Notes under the pieces: model-generated | The model's database searches: none | Seen by the model: only the letters and a program-made list of their open reading frames with translations | Told to the model about the DNA's origin: nothing | NCBI GenBank assembly: GCA_014360465.1 | Contig: JACIXQ010000008.1 | Span: forward strand, 1-46,508 | Length of the DNA: 46,508 bases | From: a bacterium | GTDB taxonomy: Bacteria; Armatimonadota; JACIXR01 | Direction of reading: 5' to 3' | Position numbers and translations under genes: made by a program | Shown: piece after piece, positions 4,813-43,648 of the stretch | How positions within the stretch are numbered: position 1 is the stretch's first letter | How the letters are laid out: every line of letters starts with the position of its first letter

Positions 4813-5615
4813 AAGTATCATCGGCAAGACGAAAAGAGCTCTTCTTCCAGACAACCACTTCCTCTCTCTTATTCATATACCTTTTCTATGTCATCGCTCT
4901 GATTTTAGCGGACGCAATTTATCCCAAGTTGGGCGATTTATGGCGGGCATTCCGCTCAGAAGAGATGCTCTTTGCGATAAAGCTTAGCATAATTACCTCC
5001 CTCGTCACTACATTCATCTCGGCGTTAATCGCTATTCCATCCGCTTATGCCCTCTCCCGTTTTCGGTTCCCCTTACCAACCCTGATAGATACAATCCTTG
5101 ATTTACCTATAGTCCTTCCTCCCCTCGTGGCAGGGATAAGCATACTGGTCTTCTTTGACACAGCGCTAGGTAGATGGATAGAAAAACTTGGCATCCACTT
5201 CGTCCATACGACCTATGGAATAATCCTCGCTCAATTCACCATCGCTGCAGCTTTCGCTGTCAGAGCTTGTAAAGCTGCATTTGACGATGTCTCCCCACGC
5301 TATGAAGATGTCGCCCGCTCGCTTGGCTGTAGTAGACCACTGGCATTCTGGAAAGTAACCCTTCCTCTCGCAAAGAATGGGATAATTGCGGGTATTATAA
5401 TGACCTGGGCAAGGGCAATGGGTGAATTCGCTCCTATAATTATTGTGGCAGGGGCAACTCCACTCAAAACCGAGGTTTTGCCAATCGCAATATTTATGAA
5501 TTTGAGCATAGGAAACATTGAAATAGCCCTTGCTGCCACTCTGATACTCGTCTTCATCTCCTTTATTACTCTCCTCCTTTTCAAACTATTAGGAGGAAAA
5601 CTTTATCTACGCTAA
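4809..5615 (+). CDS. ABC transporter permease, ModB/CysTW-like
   Basis: 268 aa, polytopic. The 'ARSLGCSRPLAFWKVTLPLAKNGIIAG...GEFAPIIIVAG' region is a ModB-type EAA loop. No ATPase gene is adjacent. Confidence 0.6.
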   Translation: MKVSSARRKELFFQTTTSSLLFIYLFYVIALILADAIYPKLGDLWRAFRSEEMLFAIKLSIITSLVTTFISALIAIPSAYALSRFRFPLPTLIDTILDLPIVLPPLVAGISILVFFDTALGRWIEKLGIHFVHTTYGIILAQFTIAAAFAVRACKAAFDDVSPRYEDVARSLGCSRPLAFWKVTLPLAKNGIIAGIIMTWARAMGEFAPIIIVAGATPLKTEVLPIAIFMNLSIGNIEIALAATLILVFISFITLLLFKLLGGKLYLR

Positions 5616-10804: not shown

Positions 10805-11125
10805 TCAAATCCGCAAAAAACGAGGATTTAATCTCCATCTTCTTGTTTTGGGTGCTGACCAAGTATCCTTATCAGCATCCTTCCATCCCACTCCTAAAAG
10901 CCATCCCTTCTTCGCAAGATTGCTAATTTGTTTACCTAAATACACATAGGGAGTATATCTTTTCCCACTTCCCCTTCCTCCTTCACACCCATAGCGCTCC
11001 ACCAGCTCCGAAAAATCGTCGCCGTAGCGGGCTCTGAATTCCATAATTATGTCATAGCTTGTTGCTTCTCCCCCCAAATCCCTGATGACATCCAGTATCT
11101 TTGCATACACATCCTCAACTAACAT
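10805..11125 (-). CDS. hypothetical 106-aa protein, last gene of the BMC operon
   Basis: Directly abuts the PduT-like gene (no gap) on the same strand. The basic C-terminus is 'KTRRWRLNPRFLRI'. No recognisable family. Confidence 0.4.
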   Translation of the reverse strand: MLVEDVYAKILDVIRDLGGEATSYDIIMEFRARYGDDFSELVERYGCEGGRGSGKRYTPYVYLGKQISNLAKKGWLLGVGWKDADKDTWSAPKTRRWRLNPRFLRI

Positions 11126-11677
11126 TCACCTCAAAACCCCCCATATATCTGGATGGGGAGAAGCAATTACAGAGGTGCCCACCAAAATGCCCTCTTTGGC
11201 TGCCTGTGCTGCTCCCGCTTCAACCGCTGATGTCACAGCGGAGACCTTGCCTGTCAGGGTGACGAAAGATTTTCCTCCTAAACCCCTCGCTACTCTTATC
11301 TCTATCAGCTGGACATTCGCCGATTTGGCAGCAGCATCCGCAGCCAGGATAGCCGAGGATATAGACCAGGTCTCTATTATCCCTATAGCTTCCCCTATCT
11401 CAAATTCCGTCGTGGCATTGAGGGCAGGGAAGACAGAAGGATGAAGGTTAGCAATTATCATTTTATCAATAACATTATCCTCACCAAAGGCTAAAGCTGA
11501 ATTCAAGGATGTCTCAACTTCTGCCACATCTCCACCGATTACTACGGTGAACTTGCCAGGGCAAAGTGGCGTAGCCACATAAAGGTTGACCTTTGCCGAT
11601 TTTAACATCAAATCCAGCGCCTCAACTCCCCTCGCTATGGAAACGAATTCAATAACTCCTAATGCATTCTGTGTCAT
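11126..11677 (-). CDS. pduT: tandem-BMC-domain shell protein, PduT-like (putative 4Fe-4S pore)
   Basis: 183 aa with two BMC repeats. 'ALGVIEFVSIARGVEALDLMLKSAKVNLYVATPLCPGKFTVVIGGDV' is closely similar to the Salmonella PduT N-terminus, including the cluster-ligating Cys in C-P-G-K-F. Confidence 0.8.
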   Translation of the reverse strand: MTQNALGVIEFVSIARGVEALDLMLKSAKVNLYVATPLCPGKFTVVIGGDVAEVETSLNSALAFGEDNVIDKMIIANLHPSVFPALNATTEFEIGEAIGIIETWSISSAILAADAAAKSANVQLIEIRVARGLGGKSFVTLTGKVSAVTSAVEAGAAQAAKEGILVGTSVIASPHPDIWGVLR

Positions 11678-12699
11678 CTCTCTCCTCCTTCCTGCATAAC
11701 AACAGGTATTGGCTCACCACAATTTGGACAGCGTCCATTCTTTATTTTAATTGAAAGAACCCTGAAAACATAGCGACTGATGAGACACATCCCACAGGAG
11801 GGACAGTATGTGTTCTCATAGCGATGCCCCGGTATATTCCCAATATAAACATATTTTACCCCTTTTCTTTTGGCTTCCCTGTAAGCCCACTCCATCTTTT
11901 CTATATCCGTAGGAGGGGCATGGAAATGATAGGCGGGGAAATAACGAGTAAAATGCAAAGGAACGGATTCTCCAGCGTATTTCAAATGTTGCTCAATCAC
12001 CCAATTGACAGCCTCTTCACTATCATTCACCGAGCTAACCATAAGGGAGACAATTTCAAGATGCATACCGAGTTCACGGGCTATCTTAGCATTTCGCCAG
12101 GGTATGTATGCATCCGCTTTGAGGAATTTCTCGTAACTCTCTGGGACACCCTTGATATCTATTTTTATCGCATCCAACCCCGCTTCTCTCAAACCTTCCA
12201 GAGCTTCAACCGTCATATATCCATTGGACACGATACAGGTATAAAGCATTTCTTTCTTTGCAAGCGGGAAGAGCTCAAAACAGTATTCGTAAAGAAGAGT
12301 TGGCTCGTTGAAGGAAACACAAATGCCCTGGTCCTTGCCTACAGCCATATTTATAACCTCTTGGGGTGAGATGAACCTCGTCTCCTCCACAACCTCTTTT
12401 GAAAGATGCCAGTTCTGACACCAGGGGCAGGGAAAGTTACAAGAATATGTTGAGATAGTTAGAGAAGATGTACCAGGATAAAAATGATAAAAGGGCTTAA
12501 TCTCTATAGGACGCGATTCTATAGCGCTTAGATTTCCATAAGAAAGAGTGAATAGCTCGCCATCTTTATTCACCCTCATCCGGCAGAACCCTCTTTTCCC
12601 CTCCTCTATGAGACAATGCCTTTCACATAGATGGCACTTGATGTTATTCCCCTCCACTCTCTCCCAGAGCAAAGCTCTTTTCATAGCAACTATTATCAT
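11674..12699 (-). CDS. radical SAM enzyme, AmmeMemoRadiSam (AmrS)/PflX-like family
   Basis: 341 aa. N-terminal 'CHLCERHCLIEEGKRGFC' followed by 'IEIKPFYHF...CNFPCPWCQNW' (CxxxCxxC), as in TIGR04337-type enzymes. The C-terminal cluster is 'CPSCGMC...CPNCG'. It overlaps both neighbours by 4 nt. Confidence 0.65.
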   Translation of the reverse strand: MIIVAMKRALLWERVEGNNIKCHLCERHCLIEEGKRGFCRMRVNKDGELFTLSYGNLSAIESRPIEIKPFYHFYPGTSSLTISTYSCNFPCPWCQNWHLSKEVVEETRFISPQEVINMAVGKDQGICVSFNEPTLLYEYCFELFPLAKKEMLYTCIVSNGYMTVEALEGLREAGLDAIKIDIKGVPESYEKFLKADAYIPWRNAKIARELGMHLEIVSLMVSSVNDSEEAVNWVIEQHLKYAGESVPLHFTRYFPAYHFHAPPTDIEKMEWAYREAKRKGVKYVYIGNIPGHRYENTYCPSCGMCLISRYVFRVLSIKIKNGRCPNCGEPIPVVMQEGGER

Positions 12700-14003
12700 T
12701 CTTTTCTAATCCTTATTTCCTGCGAAGTTATAGTGCTGATTACCCCATCTATAGAAGCGTGGATTCTCGCCCCAAGGGCTCCCTCCGGTATCTCTGCTAT
12801 CAAATCCCCTCTTTTCACCTTGTCCCCCACTTTCACAACGGGCTTTGCTGGCGCTCCAGCATGCTGTTTCAAAGGAAGTATCACCTCTTCCGGCTGATAA
12901 TCTACATCGCTTAGAGGTGCTGGAACATCGTAGATAGTGAGTCCGAGGCGAGATATCAGCCTGCTCGTGGGAACCCTTTTGGCGGAAAAGAGGGCTCTGG
13001 TTGAAGAAGGCTTATTTCTGTGAGGGTTGGGAATCTTATGTTCGCTAAGCTTCTGTTTTAGTGCCTGGATTATTCTCCTGGGGGAAAGTCCCATTGGGCA
13101 AGAATAATTCTCGCACAACCCACAATCGCAACAAAGGTAAGCCTCCGTCAATTTATCCTCCTCAGCGAGCCTCCAGGAAAGTACTTTCATTAAAAGGTGG
13201 GGCTCCATAGAATGTCCGAGGAGATAGCGGGGACACAATTCAGTGCATTCCCTGCAGTTACAGCAGGTTGATACTGCCCTACGGAGAACAGCGCTTAAAT
13301 CAGGCGAAAACTTCCCCCACAAAGGATGAGTTTTGGGGAAAACGAGGATACCTTTGGTAGTTTTCTGGATTGGGTAATCAAGCGAGGGGATCAACTTGCC
13401 CGTGTTCGGTCCACCTTCTACGATGAAGAACTCCTCAACGGTTGGACCTCCAGCGAGCTTCAGGGCATCCCTCACAGGAGTCCCAACTGGAAGCTTGAAG
13501 GTGCTTGGCTTCTGAACAGCTCCGCCCACTGTGACATATTTATCAACCACTGGTTGACCATCCATAGCTTTCCCAATGTTTATAACCGTCTCAACATTCA
13601 GGACGACGCAACCAACATCTAAAGGAATTCCACCTTCCGGCACGATTCTCTTGGTTACATCGTAGACAAGTATCTGCTCATCTCCTGCAGGGTAAAAATC
13701 TCCCAATATGAAAATCTCGTGCGGACCGCCGCCCTTCAACGCTTCAACAGCCTGTTTGTATTTTGCCTTCAGCGCAACGATGCCCTTCTTCGCCCTCACA
13801 GCTTCCATCGCCGCCTGCAACCCCCTGAGAAATATGGACTTCTCCCTGGGCAGGATTTGTTGGTCAACCCTCAGGAGCGGCTCGCATTCAGCTCCGTTAA
13901 CTATAAGGAACTCTGCTTGGGATGATAACTTTATATGGGTAGGGAAACCCGCTCCACCAGCTCCAACGATACCAGCTTCCCTTGCAACATCGGATAGCGC
14001 CAT
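12696..14003 (-). CDS. pduS: PduS-like RnfC-family flavin/Fe-S oxidoreductase
   Basis: 435 aa. 'GIVGAGGAGFPTHIKL' is the RnfC/PduS NADH-binding motif. It has two ferredoxin-type clusters, 'CCNCRECTELCP' and 'CCDCGLCENYSCP'. The stop overlaps the AldDH start. Confidence 0.75.
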   Translation of the reverse strand: MALSDVAREAGIVGAGGAGFPTHIKLSSQAEFLIVNGAECEPLLRVDQQILPREKSIFLRGLQAAMEAVRAKKGIVALKAKYKQAVEALKGGGPHEIFILGDFYPAGDEQILVYDVTKRIVPEGGIPLDVGCVVLNVETVINIGKAMDGQPVVDKYVTVGGAVQKPSTFKLPVGTPVRDALKLAGGPTVEEFFIVEGGPNTGKLIPSLDYPIQKTTKGILVFPKTHPLWGKFSPDLSAVLRRAVSTCCNCRECTELCPRYLLGHSMEPHLLMKVLSWRLAEEDKLTEAYLCCDCGLCENYSCPMGLSPRRIIQALKQKLSEHKIPNPHRNKPSSTRALFSAKRVPTSRLISRLGLTIYDVPAPLSDVDYQPEEVILPLKQHAGAPAKPVVKVGDKVKRGDLIAEIPEGALGARIHASIDGVISTITSQEIRIRKE

Positions 14004-15432: not shown

Positions 15433-15702
15433 TTATTTGCCAATATCAATGGAATCTATGATGCCCACTATAGAGGCATCAACTGGCGCCTCCGGGTTAT
15501 CAACCGCCAATCTTGCAGGAGACCCAAGAGCCACAACGACCATCTCACCGATACCAGCTCCAACAGTATCAACAGCAACAAACGGGTCGCCTCTTTGCTT
15601 ACCCTCTGGGGTAAGGGGCTGAACTACAAGGAGTTTGAAACCCTTAAGGTCCTCTTCCTTGCGAGTTGAGACGACCATACCTATTACCTTCGCTATTATC
15701 AA
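15433..15702 (-). CDS. BMC vertex pentamer (BMC-P; EutN/PduN/CcmL family)
   Basis: 89 aa. 'MIIAKVIGMVVSTRKEEDLKGFKLLVVQP...DTVGAGIGEMVVVALGS' is the typical EutN/CcmL fold sequence. Confidence 0.8.
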   Translation of the reverse strand: MIIAKVIGMVVSTRKEEDLKGFKLLVVQPLTPEGKQRGDPFVAVDTVGAGIGEMVVVALGSPARLAVDNPEAPVDASIVGIIDSIDIGK

Positions 15703-16322
15703 TTTCCTTCCTCCTCCTTTATTTGGATTCCTAATCTCTCCGCCAACTCACGTGCCATATCCGTCACGATCGAGCCCTGAGGAATTACCAAAACCTGTAA
15801 TCCCTTCTCTTTGCTCTCCCAGATGTCCTCCTGAGTTATTATCGTGCGTGGAGAAGGAGAGAGTGAGGACGCCGGTTTAGAAGCTTGGGGGGTTCTTATA
15901 CCGAGAGAGAGAATCTTCTCCCAGTGGCTTCTCAGGAGCTCTGCCAGCGCTTGAGGGCATTGGGGAGGAATGGTCAAAGGCTCAACTATTGGGGTTTTAC
16001 CCTGTAGAAGAAGATTCAGAACTGCCTCAAGCGGAGGGGTATCAAATAGTCCAAGGGATATTTTAGCCACATCCGCCCACTTGACATTCACCAGCCAGAT
16101 TTCCTCAAAAGCATCTATCGCCTGGTTTTTACTCCAAATTAAAGGGGATTTTCCCTCCCTTCTCAGCTTATCGAGGAAATCTTGGGGTGGTGAATTGTGG
16201 AGGGATATGACCAGGACCAGCTTTCCCTGGGAAGAAGGGACAGGAGGCGGGACCGCCTCCTGGTTCGTTAAGAGGCGACGAACCTCCGCCTCCACAAGTT
16301 GAACAAGGCGGTCTATATCCAC
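15699..16322 (-). CDS. hypothetical BMC-associated protein with N-terminal encapsulation-peptide-like helix
   Basis: 207 aa. N-terminal 'IDRLVQLVEAEVRRLL' amphipathic helix, then a Pro-rich linker 'PPPVPSSQG'. Its C-terminus, 'VLVIPQGSIVTDMARELAERLGIQI', matches no family that I can assign. It is not PduL (no HxH repeats). Confidence 0.45.
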   Translation of the reverse strand: MDIDRLVQLVEAEVRRLLTNQEAVPPPVPSSQGKLVLVISLHNSPPQDFLDKLRREGKSPLIWSKNQAIDAFEEIWLVNVKWADVAKISLGLFDTPPLEAVLNLLLQGKTPIVEPLTIPPQCPQALAELLRSHWEKILSLGIRTPQASKPASSLSPSPRTIITQEDIWESKEKGLQVLVIPQGSIVTDMARELAERLGIQIKEEEGN

Positions 16323-16708: not shown

Positions 16709-17026
16709 TCATTCTATTTCAAGAAATTTCTGCCTTTCAGAGCCTACGGTTTCCCTACTTTCTATTAGGAAAACGAGGCTCTCCACCGGGCGAGGTATAA
16801 TATGAAATGACACAACTTCACCTACCTTTTTCGCCTCAGCCACTCCAGCTTCCACCGCGGCCTGAACCGCCGCCACATCTCCAGCAAGTTTAATCACGAG
16901 CATCCCACCACCACCTTTCGCGAGCTCATATCCAATTAATCGGACAGAAGCAGCTTTACAAGCCGCATCAGCCGCAGTCAATCCAGCGGTCAAACCCTTA
17001 ACCTCTATCAGACCTATTGACTCCAT
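16709..17026 (-). CDS. BMC-H hexamer shell protein with short C-terminal extension
   Basis: 105 aa. 'IGLIEVKGLTAGLTAADAACKAASVRLIGYE' is a BMC domain. It overlaps the aldolase 3' end by 29 nt. Confidence 0.8.
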   Translation of the reverse strand: MESIGLIEVKGLTAGLTAADAACKAASVRLIGYELAKGGGGMLVIKLAGDVAAVQAAVEAGVAEAKKVGEVVSFHIIPRPVESLVFLIESRETVGSERQKFLEIE

Positions 17027-17768
17027 CCTTGTTCAATTCCTCCAGAACTTTCCTTGTTATCCTATCAACCAGTTTCTGCATATCTATATTTCCCAGAGCA
17101 CAGAGACCACAATCCTCGCAGATAGGATTTGAAGAGACCCTATTGCGGGATTGCAAAAGTTTTAACACCTCTTCAGTAGTAAGAACCCTCTCCCTTCCCA
17201 AGAGGCGAGCAAGTAGCGATATCTTTGCATAATGCTCCAGCGTCTCCATCCGGTAATAAGCCTGAATGGGGCTATCACCAACCGTAAAGGCACCGTGGTT
17301 TTCAAGAAGAACCGCGTTTCTGTTTTTTATATATGGTCTTATTGCCTCAACAAGCTCGGGAGTGCCCGGCGTTCCATAGGGAGAAAGAGGAACTCCGTCA
17401 AGATGAAGAATTGCTTCGGGAAGGATTGGATGTTCAAGGGAAATTCCTGCCACAGCGAAGGCAGTTGCGAAAGGAGGGTGGGCGTGAAGAACAGCTTTCA
17501 CATCGGGACGCTCCTTGTAAATCATCAGATGGACAAATATCTCCGATGATGGCTTCAGATAACCCTCGGTGGCGTTTCCGTCCATATCCACTTTCACTAT
17601 CATATCAGGAGTCATAAACCCCTTTGAGACACCGGTGGGGGTTGTGAGGACAAAATTATCGTCCAACCGGCAAGTGATGTTTCCATCGTTGGCTGCGACG
17701 AAACCCTTCTGCCAGAGCCGTCTGCCAACTTCTATTATTTCTTGTCTTAAAGCGCTTTCCTTTTCCAT
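16998..17768 (-). CDS. class II aldolase (L-fuculose/rhamnulose-1-phosphate aldolase family) with C-terminal Cys motif and encapsulation peptide
   Basis: 256 aa. It has an Aldolase_II fold ('GFVAANDGNITCRL', 'HAHPPFATAFA'). The C-terminal tail 'PICEDCGLCALGNIDMQKLVDRITRKVLEELNK' carries a CxxCxxC triad followed by an amphipathic helix. Confidence 0.8.
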   Translation of the reverse strand: MEKESALRQEIIEVGRRLWQKGFVAANDGNITCRLDDNFVLTTPTGVSKGFMTPDMIVKVDMDGNATEGYLKPSSEIFVHLMIYKERPDVKAVLHAHPPFATAFAVAGISLEHPILPEAILHLDGVPLSPYGTPGTPELVEAIRPYIKNRNAVLLENHGAFTVGDSPIQAYYRMETLEHYAKISLLARLLGRERVLTTEEVLKLLQSRNRVSSNPICEDCGLCALGNIDMQKLVDRITRKVLEELNKDGVNRSDRG

Positions 17769-18153: not shown

Positions 18154-21100
18154 ATGAAAAAATCGTTACTTATAGTAATGGTTGCTTTCCTGTCTATCTC
18201 TCTTTTGCGAGGACAGGAAAAGGTGAAATTGACCCCCGAATTGCGGAAGCTTTACGGGGAGCTGACCTCAGCTGTAAAGGAGGAAAACATCAGGGATGTA
18301 ATTACGAAGCTTTCCTCCTTCCCAAGCCGCGTCACAGGCTACCCCGGTTGCGATGAAGCAGCAAAATTCGTGAAACAGAGATTTGAAGAGCTGGGTCTCC
18401 AAGATGTCGTTATGGAGGAATTTACAATTCCCACCCCCTATGATAGGGGAGCTACCCTGGAGATTCCCTCCCGCAATATTAAGATGAGGATTTACCCCCT
18501 CTGGCCTAACGCTATAAGGACTCCTTCCCTTCCCCCTGAAGGTGTAAGAGGACCTCTGATCTATGCTGGTGACGGTCATCTCCAATTTTTTGATGGAAAG
18601 AAAGTAGAAGGTTCAATCGCCCTTTTGAAATTCAACTGTGGAGTCCGTTGGTTAAATGCCCCTCGTTTGGGTGTAAAAGTTGTTCTCTTTGAGGAACCCG
18701 ATATAACTATGAGAGGCGAAGCAGAGGCAAAATTCATTTCAATACCCATTGATATAGCTCGCTTCTGGGTTCGCAAGGAAGATGCCCAGGTCTTAAGGAA
18801 GATTATGTCCGAAGACCCATCGGTTGAAGCGATTGTGAAATGCTCCATGCCTTGGGAATTGAAAAAGGGTTACAATGTCATTGGTTTTTTGCCCGGTACG
18901 GATGAGAAATTGAAAAACCAACTGATAATCGTGGAATCATTCTTCGATTCCATCTCCATCGCTCCTTCTCTGGCTCCGGGAGCGGAAAGTGCTTCCGGCA
19001 TCGCCGCTCTCCTGGAAATAGCTCGCATTTTCAAAGAAAGACCACCAAAGAGGTCGGTTCTTTTCATCGCCACTTCCGGGCACTTTGAGGCGCTTAGCGG
19101 GATAAGGGCTTACTTTACAAAGCACTTCAAGGAATATGAAAAGCTCGGTCCTATGGAGAAGATAAAAGGATTCTTTGCACGTGTCTTCCATACCGGATAC
19201 AAGCCGCGAGAGATAAAGAAGGTTTACCTCTTCACGGGATTGGACCTCTCAAGCCAATCACAAGCTATCGGAATATTCTACAAATCTATGTTCTACGAGA
19301 TAAGGGAAGACCGCCAGAGGGATTTCTCCGATATTGCGAGGGTATGTAGAGAGAATGCAGAGAGGGTAGCGGAATTTATGAAGATTAAGCCCGAGCTTAT
19401 TTTCGCTGATGGTATTAATCCAATAGCGGGTAAGCCTTGGAGAACCTTCATTCCTGGAAAAGCCGCCCTTGATGCTGAGCTTTTTACTATGATGGGCGGC
19501 TATGGCGTTTCTTTCTTCACAATAAACGATTCCCGTTCCCTCGTTGATACTCCCTTTGATACAGTTGATAGGATGAACTTCCCCAATCTTATGAGACAGG
19601 TAAAGCTACTTGCTTGCCTATACCATCATATTTTCAATGACCCACCGCGTAAAGGGACGACCACCGCACTTCGCTTCCCGATAACTGAACCATCAAAGAT
19701 AGAACGCTTGGGCTTGATGAACGGGTTCGGCACATTAGCAGGTAGAGTTGTCTATTTCGACCCCAGGAAAAGCTTCATACCGGATGTCCCAATTCCCAAT
19801 TCAATAGTTATCCTCAAACATTGGAATAAGAGTATGATGGGTGTGAGGGGACATATGATAGAGATGACGGACAAAGATGGTAAATTTGAATTCAATGGAG
19901 TAGCTACCATAACGGCAATAGGATGGCGTAGACCGGCAACAGTAAATGCTTATAAATTAGATGATAAAACCGGAGAAATCATCTATGCACCCGACTTAGG
20001 TGCAATGGGTGCGGAGGCTTACCCAGTGGATGCGATGATGACTGTTGGGAAGAAGTATGTGACCGTCGTTGCTTTCCGCTGTGCTTCCCTTTCAATATTT
20101 GACCTCGTTGACCCTCAGGGATTGGCAATCCTTACAAATATTGCCATTCTTGATGGGATAACTGACGGTACACCCAGGATGTATGGACAGGCGATAAGCT
20201 TACCAGAAGCTTGGATGCCTCATGTGGATGACTGCGCCGTTATATTTGCTGAGCCAGGTAGCCGAATTAAGGTTATAATGGGCGCCGGTCCAGCGGCGAT
20301 AAGGTTCCTCCTTCTCCACGCAACTCCGAAAAACCCCAAGGGCGATGGCTATGAGGTTAAAGGTTCAGGGACTCTCTACTTTACCCCTTATAAAGTTGCT
20401 AAGGATATGTGGATCTGGGATGAATACCGTATGTCCAAGCTCCGCCGTTTCCGCATCATAAATGATGTGTTGGAAGACCTTCACAGAAGGGCAAAGGAAG
20501 AATTGGACAGAGCGGAAAAAGAATTAGCTCAACTTAATTATAGTCGGTTTTACGCTCACGCGAGAAGTGCTTGGGGCTATGAGACTAGGGCTTACCCCGT
20601 AGTAAGGAGCACGGGAGATGATGTAGTAAGGGGCGTAATCTTCTATATGGCGATAGTCATTCCATTCGCTTTCTTCCTTGAGAGATTGCTATTCGCCTTT
20701 CCGACTCTCATTCAGCAACTCGCTGGCTTGGGTGGGATATTCCTTGCAACCTTCGTCCTTTTCCGTTACCTCCATCCTGCCTTTGAAATCGCCCTCAACC
20801 CGCTCGTCATCCTCCTTTCCTTCGTGATGCTTGCTATGGCTGGGGCGGTCGCAGCTGTAGTCGTGGGTAAGTTCCAAGAGCAATTGAAACTCCTACATCG
20901 TTCCCTCACTGGTGTTCACAGAGTGGATATCGGTAGGTTCTCAATTGCTGCCTCGGCTCTATCACTTGGCATCTCCAATATGAGACGAAGAAAAGCGAGA
21001 ACAGCGTTGACCTGTATTACCTTGATAGTTCTGACATTTGCCGTGCTTGCTTTCACTTCCGTGAAGCCGGTGATGCGCTTCAATAAGGTACCAGGCAAGG

Positions 21101-22683
21101 GCGTGCCTGCATATCAAGGAGTTATGCTGAGAACTCCTATGTGGAGCGAATTACAGGAGGTTGCCTATAGGTTATTGCACGACGAGTTCACATCCAGGGG
21201 CTATAAAGTATCTCCTCGTATCTGGTTCTACACCTCCGCCTGGGATGAGCAATCCTTCGTTACGCTCGTTTCCGCAGCTAATCCGTCGGACACATATGAT
21301 GTCAAAGCTTTAATGGGGCTCGGACCCGAGGAATCAAGTATAACCAGACCACAAAAAGCGCTAAAAGCAGGGAGATGGATAGAGGCTAAAGATACGAATG
21401 TGTGTATTATTCCCGAAGGAGTGGCGAAGAAGCTGAAGATAAAGGTAACCGATGTTGGCAAAGCCCAAATACTCATCGGTGGAGTGAAATTCACGGTTAT
21501 AGGTATTTTAGATAATAATAAATTCAAGAAAATAAAAGACCTGGATAACGAACCTATCACTCCCGTTGACTTCGTAGCGATGCAGAAACAACAGCAGCAA
21601 GGGCAAACCAGCCAGCAAGCTGGTTTTAGAGAATACATCCATCTTGAACCCGATGCCGTTGCAATCATTCCCTACCAAACCCTACTTAATATGGGCGGGA
21701 CCCTTCGCTCCGTTGCTATTGACCTCGTTTCCGCTGAAGAAGTCAAGAGGGTTCTCGGCGACCTGATGCCTCGCTTAGCTTTAAATATGTACGCAGGTGA
21801 GGGCAACAAAATCTCCCGCTACTCCACCCTGGCAATTTCTGCACCCGTCGGTTGGACAGAGCTTGCTATTATAATCCTCATAGCTGTTCTCATCGTCTTG
21901 GATACGATGTTGGCAGCTGTATATGAAAGGGTCAGGGAGATAAGGATATTCGCTTCGCTGGGCTTAGCTCCTAACCACATTGCTATGCTTTTCTTCGCTG
22001 AAGCATTGGTATACGCCGTCATCGGTGCCATAGCCGGTTACATTGTGGGACAAACGGTCGTGAAAATCTTGATAGCAACCGGAAAGATTGGTCACCTCTA
22101 CCTCAACTTCTCCTCAATGTCCGCTGTTCTTGCCACCTTCGTCGTTGTTGCTGTGACACTTCTCTCTACAATCTACCCCGCAAGAAAAGCTTCCGAGGTT
22201 GCCACCCCGGCACTCGAGAGAACCTGGACATTACCCGAACCAGAAGGTGATGTCTGGAACATTACCCTGCCCTTCTCCGTTACTGGTGAGCAATCCCGCG
22301 GTTTAGCTGGTTTCTTGAAAGAATGGCTTGAAGCTTACGAGGAATATTCGGTAGGTGATTTCGTAACCGCGGATGTTAAAGCTCATACTTTTGTCAAATA
22401 CGATATGAAGGGCTACCAGATTGATTTTATGACCTGGCTCGCACCCTTCGACCTCGGTGTTAGCCAGAGGGTGAGTATGATCATTGACCCAACGACTATC
22501 AAAGATGTTTACGACATAAAGATGGTGATAAAGAGGGAAAGCGGCGATGTTGCCAACTGGAAGAGAGTCAACCGCCGGTTCCTCAATACAATTAGAAAAC
22601 AATTCCTTATCTGGCGCACGATAAGCGTCGCCGATAGGGAAAGGTATGTGAAGATGTCCGAAGAAATAGCCGAACTCGCTTAA
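18154..22683 (+). CDS. giant fusion protein: secreted M28-like peptidase/PA ectodomain + FtsX/MacB-type (ABC3) permease domain + C-terminal cytoplasmic domain of unknown function
   Basis: 1509 aa. Signal peptide, then M28-family signatures ('NVIGFLPG', 'GAESASGIAALLEIARIF', 'LFIATSGHFEALSG') in which canonical Zn/catalytic residues appear substituted. There are multiple TM helices and a typical FtsX motif, 'AAVYERVREIRIFASLGLAP'. The permease module begins at 'MRRRKARTALTCITLIVLTFAVLAFTSV'. Confidence 0.6.
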   Translation: MKKSLLIVMVAFLSISLLRGQEKVKLTPELRKLYGELTSAVKEENIRDVITKLSSFPSRVTGYPGCDEAAKFVKQRFEELGLQDVVMEEFTIPTPYDRGATLEIPSRNIKMRIYPLWPNAIRTPSLPPEGVRGPLIYAGDGHLQFFDGKKVEGSIALLKFNCGVRWLNAPRLGVKVVLFEEPDITMRGEAEAKFISIPIDIARFWVRKEDAQVLRKIMSEDPSVEAIVKCSMPWELKKGYNVIGFLPGTDEKLKNQLIIVESFFDSISIAPSLAPGAESASGIAALLEIARIFKERPPKRSVLFIATSGHFEALSGIRAYFTKHFKEYEKLGPMEKIKGFFARVFHTGYKPREIKKVYLFTGLDLSSQSQAIGIFYKSMFYEIREDRQRDFSDIARVCRENAERVAEFMKIKPELIFADGINPIAGKPWRTFIPGKAALDAELFTMMGGYGVSFFTINDSRSLVDTPFDTVDRMNFPNLMRQVKLLACLYHHIFNDPPRKGTTTALRFPITEPSKIERLGLMNGFGTLAGRVVYFDPRKSFIPDVPIPNSIVILKHWNKSMMGVRGHMIEMTDKDGKFEFNGVATITAIGWRRPATVNAYKLDDKTGEIIYAPDLGAMGAEAYPVDAMMTVGKKYVTVVAFRCASLSIFDLVDPQGLAILTNIAILDGITDGTPRMYGQAISLPEAWMPHVDDCAVIFAEPGSRIKVIMGAGPAAIRFLLLHATPKNPKGDGYEVKGSGTLYFTPYKVAKDMWIWDEYRMSKLRRFRIINDVLEDLHRRAKEELDRAEKELAQLNYSRFYAHARSAWGYETRAYPVVRSTGDDVVRGVIFYMAIVIPFAFFLERLLFAFPTLIQQLAGLGGIFLATFVLFRYLHPAFEIALNPLVILLSFVMLAMAGAVAAVVVGKFQEQLKLLHRSLTGVHRVDIGRFSIAASALSLGISNMRRRKARTALTCITLIVLTFAVLAFTSVKPVMRFNKVPGKGVPAYQGVMLRTPMWSELQEVAYRLLHDEFTSRGYKVSPRIWFYTSAWDEQSFVTLVSAANPSDTYDVKALMGLGPEESSITRPQKALKAGRWIEAKDTNVCIIPEGVAKKLKIKVTDVGKAQILIGGVKFTVIGILDNNKFKKIKDLDNEPITPVDFVAMQKQQQQGQTSQQAGFREYIHLEPDAVAIIPYQTLLNMGGTLRSVAIDLVSAEEVKRVLGDLMPRLALNMYAGEGNKISRYSTLAISAPVGWTELAIIILIAVLIVLDTMLAAVYERVREIRIFASLGLAPNHIAMLFFAEALVYAVIGAIAGYIVGQTVVKILIATGKIGHLYLNFSSMSAVLATFVVVAVTLLSTIYPARKASEVATPALERTWTLPEPEGDVWNITLPFSVTGEQSRGLAGFLKEWLEAYEEYSVGDFVTADVKAHTFVKYDMKGYQIDFMTWLAPFDLGVSQRVSMIIDPTTIKDVYDIKMVIKRESGDVANWKRVNRRFLNTIRKQFLIWRTISVADRERYVKMSEEIAELA

Positions 22684-22699
22684 AAGGAGGTGCAAAGGC

Positions 22700-24670
22700 T
22701 TGGAAGTAACGAGAGAAGAAATCCCTGAAGCGGTAGGAGAAGTTAGACAATTCGAAGAGGGTTTTACATGGAAAACGGTATTAGGGACTTTCTTCGTGGG
22801 TATAGTTATTATGCCCGCTGCCATATATGTGGGATTAGTAGCAGGAACAGCTGTCGGAGCTGCCGCTCAATGGATGACCATTATCGTTTTCAACGAGGTT
22901 GCAAGGCGCTCATTCATTCCACTTAAGAAGCAGGAGCTCTACCTGCTCTACTATGTCGCCGGTGGCTTGGCCGGAATGGTCGGAACAGCTCTCGCTGGTG
23001 GTCCATTCGCTTGGTGGATTTGGAACCAGTACTTCGCCAATTCTACCGCTGCTAAACAATTTGGTATCTACGGCAAGATTCCTACCTGGGTCGTCCCTCC
23101 ACCCGGAAGTCCAGCAATAATCAATCGCACCTTCCTGGATTCTGCCTGGCTTGTTCCCCTTTACCTTTTGCTTGCCTACCAGGTAATAGGACGTCTGACC
23201 TGGATTGGTATGGGCTACAGTCTATTCCGTCTTACCTCCGATATAGAACGGCTCCCCTTCCCACTCGCTCCCATAGCAGCTGCTGGTGCTACAGCCCTTG
23301 CAGAAGTTGGTAGGAAAGAGGAAACCTGGCGCTGGCAGGTCTTCTCCGTAGGAGCGGTTCTCGGCTTGATATGGGGGTTTTTCTATGTAGGTATACCGGC
23401 TATCTCAAGCGCCTTTATGGTCAAACCCCTTCAGCTTATCCCGATTCCCTATATTGACCTCACCCCCACAACCGAGTCCTTTCTCCCTTCAGCCCCAATT
23501 GGGCTGGTGGGCGACCTTGGGCTTTTGATAACGGGTTTCGTCCTTCCTTTCCCAATTGTCTTAGGTAACCTCATCGGCTCGGTTCTTTGCCAGGGCATCG
23601 CCAATCCAGTCCTTTATCATATGGGTTATATACCCACCTGGCGCCCAGGGATGACGATAATCTACACCCAATTCGCTACATCATTTGATGTCTGGATAAG
23701 CGTTGGCGCTGGCTTCGCAGGTGCCGTAGCTATAATCGGATTCTATAGTATGGGCAAACTACTCGCCACGGCAAGAAAACAATACGGGGGAAGAGGCAGA
23801 GGAAGCCTTGCGCCACCACCAGGACGAGGTGACTTTCCTATAAGCCTTGCATTGGGAATGTGGTTCTTTGCCACACTCGCCTCAGTAATCATCTGCCATA
23901 AACTCGTTCCCAAGTTTCCCTTATGGATACTCGTCTTCTTCGCCTTCATCTGGACACCTTTGAACTCATACATTTCGGCAAGAATGATTGGTTTCGGTGG
24001 CTTCTTTCCCGGCATACCTTACCTTAAAGAAGCCACAATTATACTGAGCGGATATAAGAATGTGGATATCTGGTTCGCTCCAATTCCACTTGCCGATTAC
24101 GGTGGCACCGCCCAGTTCTTCCGGGAAGTGGAGTTAACCGGAACCAAATTCACAAGTATACTTAAAGCCGAAGCCCTTATGTTCTTTGTAATTCTCGGCT
24201 TCTCCTTCCTTTACTGGCAATACATTTGGAAACTACGCCCTATCCCTGACCCAGCCTATCCTTATGCCCAGAAAATGTGGCCTCTCAACGCTATGAACAG
24301 CGCTTTAATTATGACCGCCAACCTTTCCCCTGAGCAAGCCTGGCTCTTGAAAGCACTTAAGTTCAAAGTAATTGGGGCAAGCTTTGGAATAGGGTTACTT
24401 ATTTATATTCTTATGAACTATTTCGGTCTCCCTCCAATGCTATTCTATGGCTTTGTTGGCGGCGTAACCGGTCTCCCTGCAAACACCCTTGTTATCTTTA
24501 TCGGCGCGTTGCTTGGCAGATATTACTTCTCAAAAAGATTTGGAGAACATAGATGGCGCGCTTATACCCCGGTTTTAGCTGCAGGTTATGGGTGTGGGTT
24601 TGGCTTGGTCAGTATGATTTGCATCGCTTTGACTCTCATTGCTAAATCGGTAAGCTATATGCCCTATTAG
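22700..24670 (+). CDS. polytopic membrane protein, probable OPT-family oligopeptide transporter
   Basis: 656 aa with at least 14 hydrophobic segments. The N-terminal region 'FTWKTVLGTFFVGIVIMPAAIYVGLVAGTAVGAAAQWMTIIVFNEVAR' resembles the conserved OPT N-terminal block. RBS AAGGAGG lies 17 nt after the previous stop. Confidence 0.45.
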   Translation: MEVTREEIPEAVGEVRQFEEGFTWKTVLGTFFVGIVIMPAAIYVGLVAGTAVGAAAQWMTIIVFNEVARRSFIPLKKQELYLLYYVAGGLAGMVGTALAGGPFAWWIWNQYFANSTAAKQFGIYGKIPTWVVPPPGSPAIINRTFLDSAWLVPLYLLLAYQVIGRLTWIGMGYSLFRLTSDIERLPFPLAPIAAAGATALAEVGRKEETWRWQVFSVGAVLGLIWGFFYVGIPAISSAFMVKPLQLIPIPYIDLTPTTESFLPSAPIGLVGDLGLLITGFVLPFPIVLGNLIGSVLCQGIANPVLYHMGYIPTWRPGMTIIYTQFATSFDVWISVGAGFAGAVAIIGFYSMGKLLATARKQYGGRGRGSLAPPPGRGDFPISLALGMWFFATLASVIICHKLVPKFPLWILVFFAFIWTPLNSYISARMIGFGGFFPGIPYLKEATIILSGYKNVDIWFAPIPLADYGGTAQFFREVELTGTKFTSILKAEALMFFVILGFSFLYWQYIWKLRPIPDPAYPYAQKMWPLNAMNSALIMTANLSPEQAWLLKALKFKVIGASFGIGLLIYILMNYFGLPPMLFYGFVGGVTGLPANTLVIFIGALLGRYYFSKRFGEHRWRAYTPVLAAGYGCGFGLVSMICIALTLIAKSVSYMPY

Positions 24671-24694
24671 TTCTTTAGAAAGGAGGAGAGAAGT

Positions 24695-25864
24695 ATGCGG
24701 ACGATAAAAGCTGGAATTATTGGAACAGGCTTCATCGGACCAGCCCATATTGAGGCAGCCAGGCGTCTCGGATTCGTTGATATCGTTGCCCTTGCCGAGG
24801 TGGACCTGGAGACGGCGGAAAGAAAGGCTAAGGCATTGAATATTCCACGATATTATGGAAGTTACGAGGAGATGTTGGAAAAGGAGAAGGAAATAGAGGT
24901 AATTCATAACTGCACCCCTAACTCCCTGCATTACGAGATAAGCAAGGTTTGCCTTTCTATGGGAAAGCATGTTATTTCCGAGAAACCGCTTGCGATGAAC
25001 TCCAAGGAATCAAGGGAGCTTGTCCTGCTGGCAAGGGAAAAAGGATTGGTAAACGCGGTTGACTTCAATTACCGCCATTATCCCCTCGTCCAACAAGCGA
25101 AAGCAATGGTCGAGAAGGGCGAAGTGGGTAAGATATATGGCATATTCGGCACTTATGAACAGGATTGGCTTTATCTTGATACGGATTATAACTGGAGGAT
25201 TGAGCCCGAGCTTGGGGGTGAGTCCCGAGCAGTAGCTGACATAGGCACACACTGGTGCGATACCGCACAGTTTATAAGCGGCTTGCGTATCAAAGAAGTA
25301 TTTGCCGATATGGCTATAATCCATAAGACGAGAAAGAAACCCAAGAAGCCGATAGAAACCTACGCGGGCAAAGAGCTTACTCCAGAGGATTACGAAGAAG
25401 TTCCTGTGAAGACGGAGGACTATGCGACGGTTCTCATCCATTTCGAGGGAGGAGCTGTAGGAGTCTTCACCGTCTGCCAGGTATTCGCGGGAAGGAAAAA
25501 CAGATTGTATATAGAGATAACGGGTTCAAAGTGCGCCCTCGTCTGGGACCAGGAAGACCCGGAAAGGCTGTGGATTGGCAGGAGGGAAGCCCCCAATCAG
25601 ATCTTGATGCGCGACCCATCTTTGCTTCATAAAGAAGCAAAAGACTATTGCCACTATCCAGGCGGACATCCTGAGGGCTATCCTGACGGGTTGAAGAACT
25701 TCCTGCGTAATGTCTACAGATTCATCGCCGAAGGGAAGAACCCAAACCAGGACCCTTGCGACTTCCCAACTTTCTTGGATGGACACTACGAGATACTTAT
25801 GGTTGAAGCTGTTCTCAAGAGTGCCAGAGAAGGAAGATGGGTTGAGATAAATTACGACCTATAA
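24695..25864 (+). CDS. Gfo/Idh/MocA-family NAD(P)-dependent oxidoreductase
   Basis: 389 aa. 'IKAGIIGTGFIGPAHIEAARRL' Rossmann motif and 'EKPLAMN' motif. Confidence 0.75.
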   Translation: MRTIKAGIIGTGFIGPAHIEAARRLGFVDIVALAEVDLETAERKAKALNIPRYYGSYEEMLEKEKEIEVIHNCTPNSLHYEISKVCLSMGKHVISEKPLAMNSKESRELVLLAREKGLVNAVDFNYRHYPLVQQAKAMVEKGEVGKIYGIFGTYEQDWLYLDTDYNWRIEPELGGESRAVADIGTHWCDTAQFISGLRIKEVFADMAIIHKTRKKPKKPIETYAGKELTPEDYEEVPVKTEDYATVLIHFEGGAVGVFTVCQVFAGRKNRLYIEITGSKCALVWDQEDPERLWIGRREAPNQILMRDPSLLHKEAKDYCHYPGGHPEGYPDGLKNFLRNVYRFIAEGKNPNQDPCDFPTFLDGHYEILMVEAVLKSAREGRWVEINYDL

Positions 25865-25931
25865 GAAACAAAACCTGCAGTTTTTCGTCTAAAAATAGTA
25901 GAAGCAAATAGATAATGGACAGTGATGCGAT

Positions 25932-27029
25932 GTGAGGAAGTTATGTTGGTTGCTATTATTTGCCCTTCTGCTGGTTCCCTTCCTTGCTTATCCTCTAACG
26001 AGAGAGGAAGAGATACAAATTGGTAGAGAAGCGGCAGCTGAGGTAGAGAAAGAATACAAGTTAAGCGACGATAAAGACCTTTTGGATAAGGTAGACAAAA
26101 TAGGCAAAACGATAGCCGCTGTCTCGGAAGACCCATCGCTACCTTGGACGTTCAAGGTGGTCGTCTCCGATGAAGTGAACGCTTTTACTCTGCCCGGTGG
26201 TTTTATTTACATAACCACCGGGCTACTAAATTTTGTAAGAACCGACGACGAATTGGCGGGAGTAATAGCACACGAGATTGCCCACGCCGCAAGGCATCAT
26301 TTCATCAAGCTTGCCGAGCAACAAGCTAAAACGGAAAGACAATTGGCACCATTTCTTTTAGCGGCTCTCCTTGGCACACAAGGAAGCGATTTGGAAAACA
26401 TCTATTTGGGTCTTCAGCTCGTGGAGATAGCCAAAATGCATAGCTACGGGCAAGCTCTTGAAGAAGATGCGGATTTAGCTGGCGCAAGATACCTGATTTT
26501 ATCGAAAAAATATAATCCCGCAGGCATATTAACTTTCCTCCAAAGATTAGCGAGAATGGAGGAAAGAGGAGTTAAACAAGAACTTGGCATTTTACAAACT
26601 CACCCATATGCCAAAGAAAGAACCGCTAACTTGCTTACCTTCCTCCGCAGCACGGGAAGCGAATTCAATGAACGGAAGGCAGCTGGTTTGTACAAGCTAT
26701 CTGTTCGCCCCCAAGGGGTGGATGTCACTGCTGTATATATTGACGACCAACTAATTGCCCAGTTCACAGGAGAAAACGGCAAACGAGCAGGCGAAATATT
26801 AGCTGAGAATTTGGACCAATTGTTGGACCAGAACCTTCGCGTTTGGGAAGTAAGTGCCAAATTATTGCCAAATGGGAATCCAGCAGTAGTAGCAAGGAAT
26901 AAAGTCCTGATAGAAATTACCACCGATATACTTCCCGATAAAGGCAAGGACCCCTTAACCTACGCTCAGACAATTGCTGGGAATATAAGACAACGGCTTC
27001 TGAAAGAATTTATAAACCAAATATATTAA
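25932..27029 (+). CDS. secreted M48-family (Ste24/BepA-like) zinc metallopeptidase
   Basis: 365 aa. Signal peptide, 'HEIAHAARHH' HExxH motif and downstream 'EEDADLAG' glutamate. Confidence 0.7.
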   Translation: MRKLCWLLLFALLLVPFLAYPLTREEEIQIGREAAAEVEKEYKLSDDKDLLDKVDKIGKTIAAVSEDPSLPWTFKVVVSDEVNAFTLPGGFIYITTGLLNFVRTDDELAGVIAHEIAHAARHHFIKLAEQQAKTERQLAPFLLAALLGTQGSDLENIYLGLQLVEIAKMHSYGQALEEDADLAGARYLILSKKYNPAGILTFLQRLARMEERGVKQELGILQTHPYAKERTANLLTFLRSTGSEFNERKAAGLYKLSVRPQGVDVTAVYIDDQLIAQFTGENGKRAGEILAENLDQLLDQNLRVWEVSAKLLPNGNPAVVARNKVLIEITTDILPDKGKDPLTYAQTIAGNIRQRLLKEFINQIY

Positions 27030-42244: not shown

Positions 42245-43648
42245 CGCTCTTCCTCAAAAATAATTTACTCGAAAAGGGGTAGTTTCCTCAATAATAATGA
42301 TGACAAGAGGCAATCATCTCCTACAATTTATTCCTATAATGAACTTTCTAAAAGGAGGTGTAAGAAGATGATTGCCTCTATTCCGAAAGAAGTATACTCC
42401 CTTGAGAGTAAACGTGCAATAATAAAAGCGAATGCCAGCAGGTACAGACAAGCAACAAAGAAAGAGAAGACGCTTTTACTTAATGAGTTATGTACAATCC
42501 TATACTTGTCACGCTCTTATACTGCACGGCTCTTGAGGGGATGCGGTAAAGTGATATACTTCAAAGGGGTAAGATTTTTAGCGGAATGGGATAGCAGAAG
42601 TATACACAGGAGGGGAAGAAAAAAGATTTACTCGGAAGAGATAGTCCCTTATCTTTTGAAAATATGGAGAGTAGCGGGATACATCTCCTCTAAGCACTTA
42701 AGGGTTTACATTTCTGCAAACAGCGATAAGTTATTCTCCCATCCTGAATTAGTGTCCGCATCGGAGGAGATAAAGGAGAAACTACTGAAAATAAGTCCCG
42801 CTACAATAGATAGATTGCTCAAACCACATAGGTGGAAATTGAGAGCAAAGGGGAAATACAAAAGCAATCCCTTCAGCTCAAATGTTAAAAGAGCCGTTCC
42901 CACGGAAAGCTATTTTGATAAGAAAAAGGAAACCGGGGATATGGAAGTAGACATCCTCTACCATAGTGGGGAATCAGCAAAAGGAGAATTTTTCTTCACG
43001 CTTACCGCCACGGAGGTGACCACGGATTGGACAGAGTTGCGCCTTTTAAAGAATAAAGCTATGGTGTGGACTGTAGAGGCTTTGAAGAGCATCGTCAGTG
43101 ATATGCCTATAAATGTAAAGAGTATACACACGGATAACGGTTCAGAATTCTTGAACCATCATATGTATAGATTTTGCCAAGAGAAGGGTATAAAGTTTAG
43201 GCGTTCTCGTCCCTATCGCAAGAATGATGCTCCCTATGTAGAGAGCAAGAATTGGTCACTTGTTAGGCGTTATACAGGGTGGCGGCGATATGATTCGGAA
43301 GAAGAAGGCGAGATACTGAGAACACTTCTTTACCTTCTAAGTTTGAGGCACAACATTTTTACTCCTACGATAAAGACAAAGGGCAAGGTAAAGGAAGGTA
43401 ATAAGGTAAGAGTGCAAAAAGATATCAACACGCCATACAATAGGGTGTTAGAACTTTCCGAGGTGTCGGAGGAGACGAAAGAAAAACTAAAGGCAATGAG
43501 AGCTAATATAGACTTATTCGAACTATCAGAACGGATTGAGATGTTGGAAAAAAGACTTGACAAAGCATATCAAATAAAGGTAAGGAGGTATAACAATGAA
43601 TAAACGGAACAAGCTTTCAAAGCAATTTATTTTTGAGGAAAGACGAAT
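42245..43648 (+). mobile_element. insertion sequence (about 1.4 kb) with about 30-bp imperfect terminal inverted repeats and a single DDE transposase ORF
   Basis: Left end 42251-42277 is TCCTCAAAAATAATTTACTCGAAAAGG. The reverse complement of 43613-43639 is TCCTCAAAAATAAATTGCTTTGAAAGC. Similarity extends a few bp outward on both sides. Confidence 0.5.
42368..43603 (+). CDS. DDE (rve/integrase-core) transposase
   Basis: 411 aa with an N-terminal HTH-like region and 'IHTDNGSEF' in the integrase catalytic core. Strong RBS AAAGGAGG. Confidence 0.7.
   Translation: MIASIPKEVYSLESKRAIIKANASRYRQATKKEKTLLLNELCTILYLSRSYTARLLRGCGKVIYFKGVRFLAEWDSRSIHRRGRKKIYSEEIVPYLLKIWRVAGYISSKHLRVYISANSDKLFSHPELVSASEEIKEKLLKISPATIDRLLKPHRWKLRAKGKYKSNPFSSNVKRAVPTESYFDKKKETGDMEVDILYHSGESAKGEFFFTLTATEVTTDWTELRLLKNKAMVWTVEALKSIVSDMPINVKSIHTDNGSEFLNHHMYRFCQEKGIKFRRSRPYRKNDAPYVESKNWSLVRRYTGWRRYDSEEEGEILRTLLYLLSLRHNIFTPTIKTKGKVKEGNKVRVQKDINTPYNRVLELSEVSEETKEKLKAMRANIDLFELSERIEMLEKRLDKAYQIKVRRYNNE

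Follow-up and report, generated by a model that had tools for sequence, protein, structure and literature searches.

A cysteine-rich junction between catalytic domain and putative encapsulation peptide in class II aldolases of bacterial microcompartments

The analyzed stretch of DNA (the window) comprises 46,508 nt of contig JACIXQ010000008.1 from a bacterium of the Armatimonadota (assembly GCA_014360465.1) and contains a bacterial microcompartment (BMC) operon on the minus strand, which starts with the gene for a class II aldolase. The aldolase carries three cysteines in a CxxCxxC arrangement, C217, C220, and C223, between its catalytic domain and a C-terminal helix that is a putative encapsulation peptide (EP). 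Comparison with homologous proteins showed that this triad is one local variant of a cysteine-rich junction that essentially every sampled BMC-targeted class II aldolase has. The features of the aldolase and of the locus are compiled in Table 1.

Translation of the minus strand from 16998 to 17135, the end of the 256-aa aldolase open reading frame (ORF), yielded SSNPICEDCGLCALGNIDMQKLVDRITRKVLEELNKDGVNRSDRG followed by a stop codon. Direct reading of the codons (TGC GAG GAT TGT GGT CTC TGT, context NPI-C217-ED-C220-GL-C223-ALGNID) verified the motif, which a first-pass annotation of the DNA had placed in this segment of a class II aldolase. The protein has only four cysteines, at positions 33, 217, 220, and 223, and with four Cys placed at random in 256 positions a CxxCxxC would be expected with a probability of about 3.6e-4. 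The annotation was also right in placing the motif directly in front of the encapsulation helix: AlphaFold2 predicted a helix for residues 230–249 with a pLDDT of about 75, and between it and C223 there are only six residues (ALGNID). The linker at residues 207–229 was predicted with low confidence, and the pLDDT was below 50 at residues 218–222 and 225–227. In the alignment, the helix coincides with the C-terminal helix of every long-tailed homologue, and the tail has the features of an EP as defined in the literature (PMC4594438), i.e., a predicted amphipathic helix (15–20 aa expected) that is set apart from the domain by a linker in the AlphaFold2 model. We therefore refer to the tail helix as a putative EP.

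The codons of the putative EP have a second feature. The Shine-Dalgarno motif of the following BMC-H gene, GGAGGA at 17038–17043 (minus strand), lies within the codons for L242-E243-E244 of the helix, the BMC-H ATG at 17024–17026 is situated 11 nt downstream of it, and the 3′ end of the aldolase gene and the BMC-H ORF (16709–17026) overlap by 29 nt. Because the Shine-Dalgarno motif is located within EP codons, the conservation of "...EEL(N/S)KDG" may in part be due to translational coupling and not to EP function.

The main part of the protein is a FucA-like domain. The Pfam family Aldolase_II (PF00596) matched residues 9–184 with an E value of 8.2e-54 and over profile positions 1–182 of 183, and a phmmer search of the PDB aligned residues 5–206 with residues 4–204 of E. 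coli FucA (1fua). The AlphaFold2 model had a mean pLDDT of 88.7, with values above 90 across most of the catalytic domain, and it has the FucA fold according to Foldseek, which returned YgbL and FucA as best matches with E values of about 1e-19, target TM-scores of about 0.9, and root mean square deviations of 1.5–2.0 Å over about 205 residues. The residues E76, H95, H97, and H158 are unchanged in an alignment of 56 sequences, and from the pairwise alignment we take them to be the equivalents of E73, H92, H94, and H155 of FucA, the catalytic Glu and the Zn-binding His triad. None of the NCBIfam equivalog models reached its cutoff for the aldolase; the top model was OxoTetrPhDc with 149 bits versus the required 250.

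The aldolase extends about 50 aa past the end of FucA, and short forms of 207–230 aa lack this extension. The alignment offset places C217 at about residue 215 of E. coli FucA, the final one of that protein, and the start of the Cys motif coincides in the alignment with the end of canonical FucA and of its mobile lid. The C-terminal tail of FucA, including Tyr209, sits in the active site, which is built by two adjacent subunits (PMC5434028). The junction Cys is not the equivalent of Tyr209, which by alignment lies 6–9 residues further upstream. Foldseek and phmmer searches found no aldolase structure in the PDB that spans such a tail, and PDB sequence searches with two isolated tails gave chance matches only.

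For the comparative analysis, three sets of homologues were pooled: the 120 best matches from a 90%-clustered database, 150 representatives from 50% clustering, and the aldolases of 80 genomic loci drawn from GTDB species representatives. The pool was reduced to 308 non-redundant tails, and six tails of more than 140 aa were excluded from the counts, so that 232 long and 70 short tails were compared. A close-lineage set of 11 aldolases consisted of eight database proteins (78–100% identity) and three further loci. Family assignments were made with Pfam and NCBIfam using curated cutoffs.

In the close-lineage set, C217 and C220 are invariant in all 11 members, and they are the sole invariant residues between positions 209 and 232, where the neighboring residues vary. 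C223 is kept in eight members and replaced by Tyr in one (P0004) and by Arg in two (P0005 and the locus L086). In the whole pool, a junction Cys is present in 198 of the 232 long tails (85%), compared with 10 of the 70 short tails (14%). A CxxC was found in 114 long tails (49%, mostly CxxCG) versus three short tails, and the full CxxCxxC in 56 long tails (24%) versus one short tail. Sixteen long tails, and no short tail, have a fourth Cys one to six residues from the CxxCxxC. Gly directly follows the CxxC in 72 of 116 occurrences. Cys makes up 6.6% of the linker residues, 1.1% of those in the catalytic domains, and 0.4% of those in the terminal helix. With clusters defined at 60% domain identity, the sequences with CxxCxxC fall into at least 11 separate ones.

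The presence of linker cysteines follows the BMC context. At least one was found in all 65 aldolases that are encoded next to shell genes, and all of these are long-tailed, both the 63 that were parsed and the two (L060, L075) for which parsing failed. The 14 loci without shell genes include four Cys-less long tails and six short forms, the latter being the only short forms among the 80 loci. The view that the triad is unusual for BMC aldolases is not borne out by these counts. The four Cys-less long tails (L016, L018, L078 from Neobacillus vireti, and L080 from Paenibacillus alvei) end in EP-like helices, and shell genes are absent from the 10 kb around them; their target may be a BMC encoded at a distant locus, or the tail may serve a different purpose. 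A separate case is L088, in which a run of N (about 5350–5360) within the aldolase gene in GCA_964452465.1 led to a split gene call and a 189-aa product without Pfam match, so that the short product is an assembly artefact and no true truncation.

The form of the junction differs between clades but is tightly kept within them. Neomoorella and many other Firmicutes share the pattern HPGCxxCGxC, whereas the aldolases of gut Clostridia with GRM5-type loci (L022, L030, L041, L043–L045, L059, L062, L063, L067, L070) have the tightly conserved pattern LC-x9-11-CHxCGGxC(xC), with four to six Cys and a His. The pattern in Acidobacteria is PIC-x8-20-CQV, and the tails of Ignavibacteria and Melioribacter have a single Cys. 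The exact spacing of ferredoxins, CxxCxxCxxxC, is present in the homologues P0040, P0044, and P0099. The ACI-type linkers, represented by L005, L006, L011, L017, and about 25 other Acidobacteria loci, share the longer motif PIC-x8-20-CQ(V/A)(L/V)xAP(S/A)xxxxRLV, which precedes an "EIRLTYxEL(T/S)ALIE(D/E)A" helix, and thus these linkers are not unconserved. Taken together, the sequence comparisons establish that the junction is a Cys element under selection, which goes along with encapsulation.

The window aldolase belongs to the known class of EP-bearing BMC aldolases. Like the class II aldolases of PVM, PVM-like, GRM5, ACI, and SPU-like BMCs (Erbilgin 2014; PMC4207490; PMC4594438; PMC8217296), it has a FucA-like domain followed by a linker and an amphipathic helix of about 18 aa, and its gene is clustered with genes for BMC-H, BMC-P, and BMC-T proteins and for an acylating aldehyde dehydrogenase (AldDH), which confirmed the BMC and EP context assumed by the first-pass annotation. 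Its linker of 23 aa equals the published minimum length for EP-bearing aldolases, but, unlike the published EP linkers, which were called unconserved, it is dominated by CxxCGxC. In further contrast to these systems, the window locus has no genes for a phosphotransacylase (PTAC) or an alcohol dehydrogenase (AlcDH), and it includes a radical SAM (rSAM) enzyme of the AmmeMemoRadiSam type. Aussignargues 2015 described the linker as being without conservation of composition or sequence, and the word "cysteine" occurs nowhere in the text (PMC4594438). In the tabulated part of that work, however, aldolase linkers contain 5.5% Cys, compared with 1% for AldDH, 0% for CcmN, and 2.8% for EutC, and hence Cys-rich linkers appear to be specific for aldolases among the tabulated EP-bearing cargo proteins (PMC4594438). 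A discussion of the junction Cys motif was found nowhere in the BMC literature that was searched.

EP linkers have been treated as passive, unconserved spacers, and yet the aldolase junction carries a Cys or a CxxC(G)(xC) at a conserved position. As the motif is present in every sampled shell-adjacent aldolase and mostly absent from non-encapsulated relatives, it points to an unrecognized functional element, which might bind a metal, switch with the redox state, or act as a latch on activity and would bear on the packaging and control of the signature enzyme. In addition, EP tails that are copied from aldolases for engineering purposes bring the motif along. Two of the roles considered by the first-pass annotation, a metal or Fe-S center and a redox-sensitive tether, are both viable.

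Our preferred hypothesis, which is quite possible, though far from assured, is that a conserved clasp of Cys residues binds a metal (Fe-S or Zn) at the junction of domain and EP linker and that the triad is its local variant. The ancestral core would have been one junction Cys, usually grown to a CxxC(G) knuckle, and individual clades would have elaborated this core to CxxCGxC, as in the window aldolase, or to four or more Cys. The thiolates would bind a metal center, either Zn or, in anaerobic lineages like that of the window, a Cys3-ligated or inter-chain Fe-S cluster. The clasp would hold in place a segment that is otherwise disordered and whose start coincides with the end of canonical FucA, the mobile lid by the active site; this would set the geometry between the tetrameric aldolase and the encapsulation helix or cross-link tails.

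Gly after CxxC is a signature of rubredoxin and zinc-knuckle metal sites and of ferredoxin sites (CxxCGxC), and the respective turn is present in the window aldolase as C217-E-D-C220-G221. Metal binding is favored because of this CxxCG knuckle, the ferredoxin-like spacing, which is occasionally extended to the full CxxCxxCxxxC, and weak sub-threshold matches to Fe-S families in Pfam. The latter are matches of the tails of P0040, P0044, and P0099 to Fer4 models and of the window tail to NADH_4Fe-4S, all of which are under the curated cutoffs. The spacing CxxC(G)xC is the same as in the ferredoxin motif CxxCxxCxxxCP and in the CxxCxxC...C of the NuoF N3 cluster, but the window aldolase differs from both in having no fourth Cys or CP and no ferredoxin fold and in scoring below the gathering thresholds. 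It shares the CxxCG knuckle with rubredoxin-type and zinc-knuckle proteins and with Rad50 zinc hooks, an analogy in which one knuckle per chain would need a partner chain for a complete tetrahedral site; it differs in that the chain has just the one knuckle and that a pairing of tails through a metal would be hypothetical. Precedents within BMCs are the Cys-ligated Fe-S sites and the tetra-Cys C-terminal extension of PduT, GrpU, and PduK (PMC6325248). The tetra-Cys extension of PduK and the pore sites of PduT and GrpU are likewise Cys motifs on BMC components, for which Fe-S clusters have been proposed or shown (PMC6325248), but these are shell proteins, whereas the window aldolase is a cargo enzyme without redox chemistry and has three Cys only.

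Several results weigh against a metal clasp. No Pfam Fe-S model scored above its gathering threshold with the window tail, the top match being NADH_4Fe-4S with 16.3 bits versus a cutoff of 23.5. The tail of the window aldolase offers three Cys and no fourth ligand in cis; only C223 follows the knuckle, and a second knuckle, two further cis ligands, or a His are absent from the tail. C33 was considered as the fourth ligand and rejected, because a Tyr takes its place in L087 and a Val in most homologues. Three of the 11 close relatives lack the third Cys. The number of Cys varies from one to more than six between clades, and therefore one cofactor stoichiometry cannot apply to every clade. AlphaFold2 predicted no structured mini-domain for the window aldolase or for the four-Cys homologue P0040, and the pLDDT of the motif was below 50 in both, so that the models say little about a folded metal site. 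A link to electron transfer by PduS and PduT is not a requirement either, as the features occur separately: P0013 and P0036 have the triad without PduS/PduT, and PduS/PduT are present together with single-Cys tails in L004, L015, L039, L054, and L058. A firm assignment of a cofactor is thus prevented, since a fourth ligand is missing, three relatives have not retained C223, the Cys number is variable, and disorder is predicted.

A more far-reaching version has, in our estimate, only a modest chance of being correct. The junction might be a cofactor-bearing or redox-sensitive latch in the targeting tail that couples aldolase activity or the coalescence of cargo to encapsulation, and it could take the form of an oxygen- or redox-labile Fe-S cluster or of a thiolate that reaches the catalytic Zn. 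If true, no functional element of an EP "linker" would have been recognized before this latch, and aldolase BMCs in general (PVM-like, GRM5, ACI, SPU-like) would share it.

A thiol/disulfide redox switch, in which reversible intra- or inter-chain disulfides of the linker cysteines alter the linker conformation or cross-link the cargo as redox conditions in the BMC lumen change, is an unlikely explanation. CxxC is also a classical redox-active dithiol motif, the aerobic Acidobacteria are dominated by two-Cys forms with a spacing of 8–20 residues (PIC...CQV), and varying Cys numbers are more easily reconciled with disulfides than with one defined cofactor. However, many carriers live strictly anaerobically and have a reducing cytoplasm (e.g., Neomoorella and gut Clostridia), the strong preference for Gly after the CxxC is typical of metal knuckles, and in many clades the number of Cys is odd (one or three).

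It is doubtful, and we would give it little credence, that the junction Cys acts as a cysteine switch, which lies just beyond the mobile lid and coordinates or shields the active-site Zn until the EP engages the shell or the core; equally doubtful is the corresponding purpose, namely that the aldolase is held inactive so that lactaldehyde is released only within the compartment. Such a switch agrees with the alignment of C217 to the C-terminal residue of E. coli FucA and with the location of the FucA tail, including Tyr209, in the active site of adjacent subunits (PMC5434028), and also with the aldolase specificity of the feature among EP cargo and the fact that the single junction Cys is its most widely conserved element. 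The proposal is purely inferential, however, and it leaves the CxxCG knuckles and the elaborations with four to six Cys unexplained. In addition, class II aldolases are not known to be regulated in this way.

A lack of any specific role, with the cysteines resulting from compositional drift in a disordered linker, is very improbable. The published description of the linker (PMC4594438), the disorder predicted by AlphaFold2, and the differences in Cys number and spacing between clades would fit drift. It is already disfavored by the conservation statistics, i.e., the six-fold enrichment of Cys over the catalytic domain, the retention of the position in long but not in short forms, the CxxC that is invariant amid varying neighbors, and the low chance probability of the triad.

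The first-pass annotation had also raised the possibility that the Cys-rich tail is a substrate of the co-encoded rSAM enzyme. The modification would be, e.g., a thioether or a Cα radical. The gene for this enzyme belongs to the conserved part of the locus: it was retained in every close relative that was recovered (L081, L083–L089), and its position between the PduS-like and PduT-like genes resembles that of the activases in glycyl-radical BMCs (PMC6325248). Among Pfam domains, it has only PF04055, its top NCBIfam model was TIGR04337, and a SPASM/twitch domain was not found with Pfam or NCBIfam. All homologues with 66–77% identity are encoded in the same syntenic BMC locus, and the next relatives, with at most 58% identity, are archaeal AmmeMemoRadiSam enzymes. 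Genes for AMMECR1, Memo, or a glycyl radical enzyme (GRE) are absent from the window.

The 80 other aldolase loci were scanned for rSAM genes in two ways. Searches of the locus ORFs by phmmer with the window proteins and by a hidden Markov model of 120 rSAM homologues detected an AmmeMemoRadiSam-type rSAM in none of the 80 loci. A search for the CxxxCxxC motif detected GRE-activase-like genes in 11 loci of gut Clostridia, where they precede the aldolase gene by 1.7–4.9 kb (by about 1.7 kb in ten of the loci), and among the loci with the gut Clostridia tail pattern named above only L045 is without such an upstream gene. The motif search also detected QueE-like genes in about 19 Acidobacteria loci; in L006, the sole locus that was checked, the QueE-like gene adjoins QueC, so it is a housekeeping gene. 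The rSAM genes of the sampled loci therefore have other explanations, as they encode GRE activases in GRM5-type loci or QueE-like proteins.

Conversely, triad-bearing aldolases occur in BMC loci without any rSAM gene within 10 kb (P0013, P0044, P0036, L001, L002, L007), and the CxxCxxC aldolases without a nearby rSAM gene are from Neomoorella, other Firmicutes, and SPU-like loci. L086 has the rSAM gene, but its aldolase reads CEECALR and thus lacks the third Cys. Because triads exist elsewhere without the rSAM and the rSAM exists in L086 without C223, the triad is older than the rSAM, independent of it, and not needed by it. A linkage of the two was rejected, as they do not co-occur across the homologues, and with the lineage-confined distribution of the rSAM, its lack of a SPASM/twitch domain, and its archaeal relatives outside the locus, the rSAM substrate proposal is barely credible. 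The annotation had named absence of the triad from close orthologues, or its presence in non-BMC aldolases unlinked to rSAM genes, as findings that would contradict it; the triad is indeed incomplete in some close orthologues and common without rSAM genes, but the latter in BMC aldolases. For the window locus, the practical outcome is negative, i.e., what the rSAM enzyme acts on cannot be read from the motif. The oddity at the level of the locus is the presence of an AmmeMemoRadiSam rSAM inside a BMC operon, which is separate from the triad. A BMC locus with an rSAM of this type is not mentioned in the BMC catalogues that were searched, and the papers that contain the name "AmmeMemoRadiSam" use it once each and, by their titles and abstracts, do not address its function.

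Table 1. Features of the aldolase gene and of the minus-strand BMC locus in the window
Feature	Position	Strand	Basis
Class II (FucA-like) aldolase, 256 aa, signature enzyme of the locus	16998..17768	-	ORF; Pfam Aldolase_II
Catalytic domain, aa 1-206	17151..17768	-	Alignment to E. coli FucA residues 4-204
Linker, aa 207-229 (SRNRVSSNPICEDCGLCALGNID)	17082..17150	-	Begins at FucA mobile C-terminal tail
Cys triad C217-E-D-C220-G-L-C223	17100..17120	-	Direct read
Predicted amphipathic helix, aa 230-249 (MQKLVDRITRKVLEELNKDG), putative EP	17022..17081	-	AlphaFold2 and alignment
Terminal piece, aa 250-256 and stop	16998..17021	-	Overlaps start of next gene (BMC-H)
BMC-H shell protein, 105 aa	16709..17026	-	Pfam BMC, E=2e-26
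BMC-H shell protein, 99 aa	16364..16663	-	Pfam BMC, E=5e-29
Conserved protein, 207 aa, EP-like N-terminal helix (MDIDRLVQLVEAEVRRLL)	15699..16322	-	No Pfam match
BMC-P (EutN/CcmL) vertex protein	15433..15702	-	Pfam, E=2e-33
Acylating AldDH, N-terminal EP-like helix	14003..15421	-	Pfam Aldedh; NCBIfam NF011927, 550 bits vs 403
PduS/RnfC-like flavo-iron-sulfur protein	12696..14003	-	Pfam Complex1_51K, SLBB, Fer4_17, RnfC_N; TIGR01945
AmmeMemoRadiSam-type rSAM enzyme	11674..12699	-	Pfam Radical_SAM; TIGR04337, 224.5 bits vs 220
PduT-like BMC-T shell protein, pore motif C-P-G-K-F	11126..11677	-	Two Pfam BMC domains; PLCPGKF in translation
Conserved protein, 106 aa, last of locus	10805..11125	-	Position

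The gene order of the operon is kept in L081 and L083–L089. The published Fe-S pore motif of PduT is C-P/S/A-G-K/R/S-Y/F (PMC6325248), and from the PLCPGKF of the window BMC-T protein its trimer pore is predicted to hold a [4Fe-4S] cluster. As the BMC-T protein has this PduT motif, the compartment is presumably redox-equipped. Two proteins of the operon could not be assigned to a family. The 207-aa protein, which is encoded at the same position in all syntenic loci, weakly resembles TIGR02536 "eut_hyp" (NCBIfam E value of 3.5e-7, far under the cutoff) and the N-terminus of EutQ, also below the threshold. The 106-aa protein had no match in Pfam or NCBIfam, and its position is filled by a gene for 96–106 aa in all syntenic loci.

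Upstream of the aldolase, a divergently oriented block on the plus strand (18154–27029) is syntenic in the related loci with a long enough flank (L081, L083–L087). It encodes a 1509-aa Peptidase_M28-MacB_PCD-FtsX fusion, a 656-aa membrane protein without Pfam match, a GFO/IDH/MocA oxidoreductase, and an M48 peptidase. Further away, an ORF with an rve integrase core at 42368–43603 (plus strand) probably belongs to an insertion sequence element or encodes a transposase.

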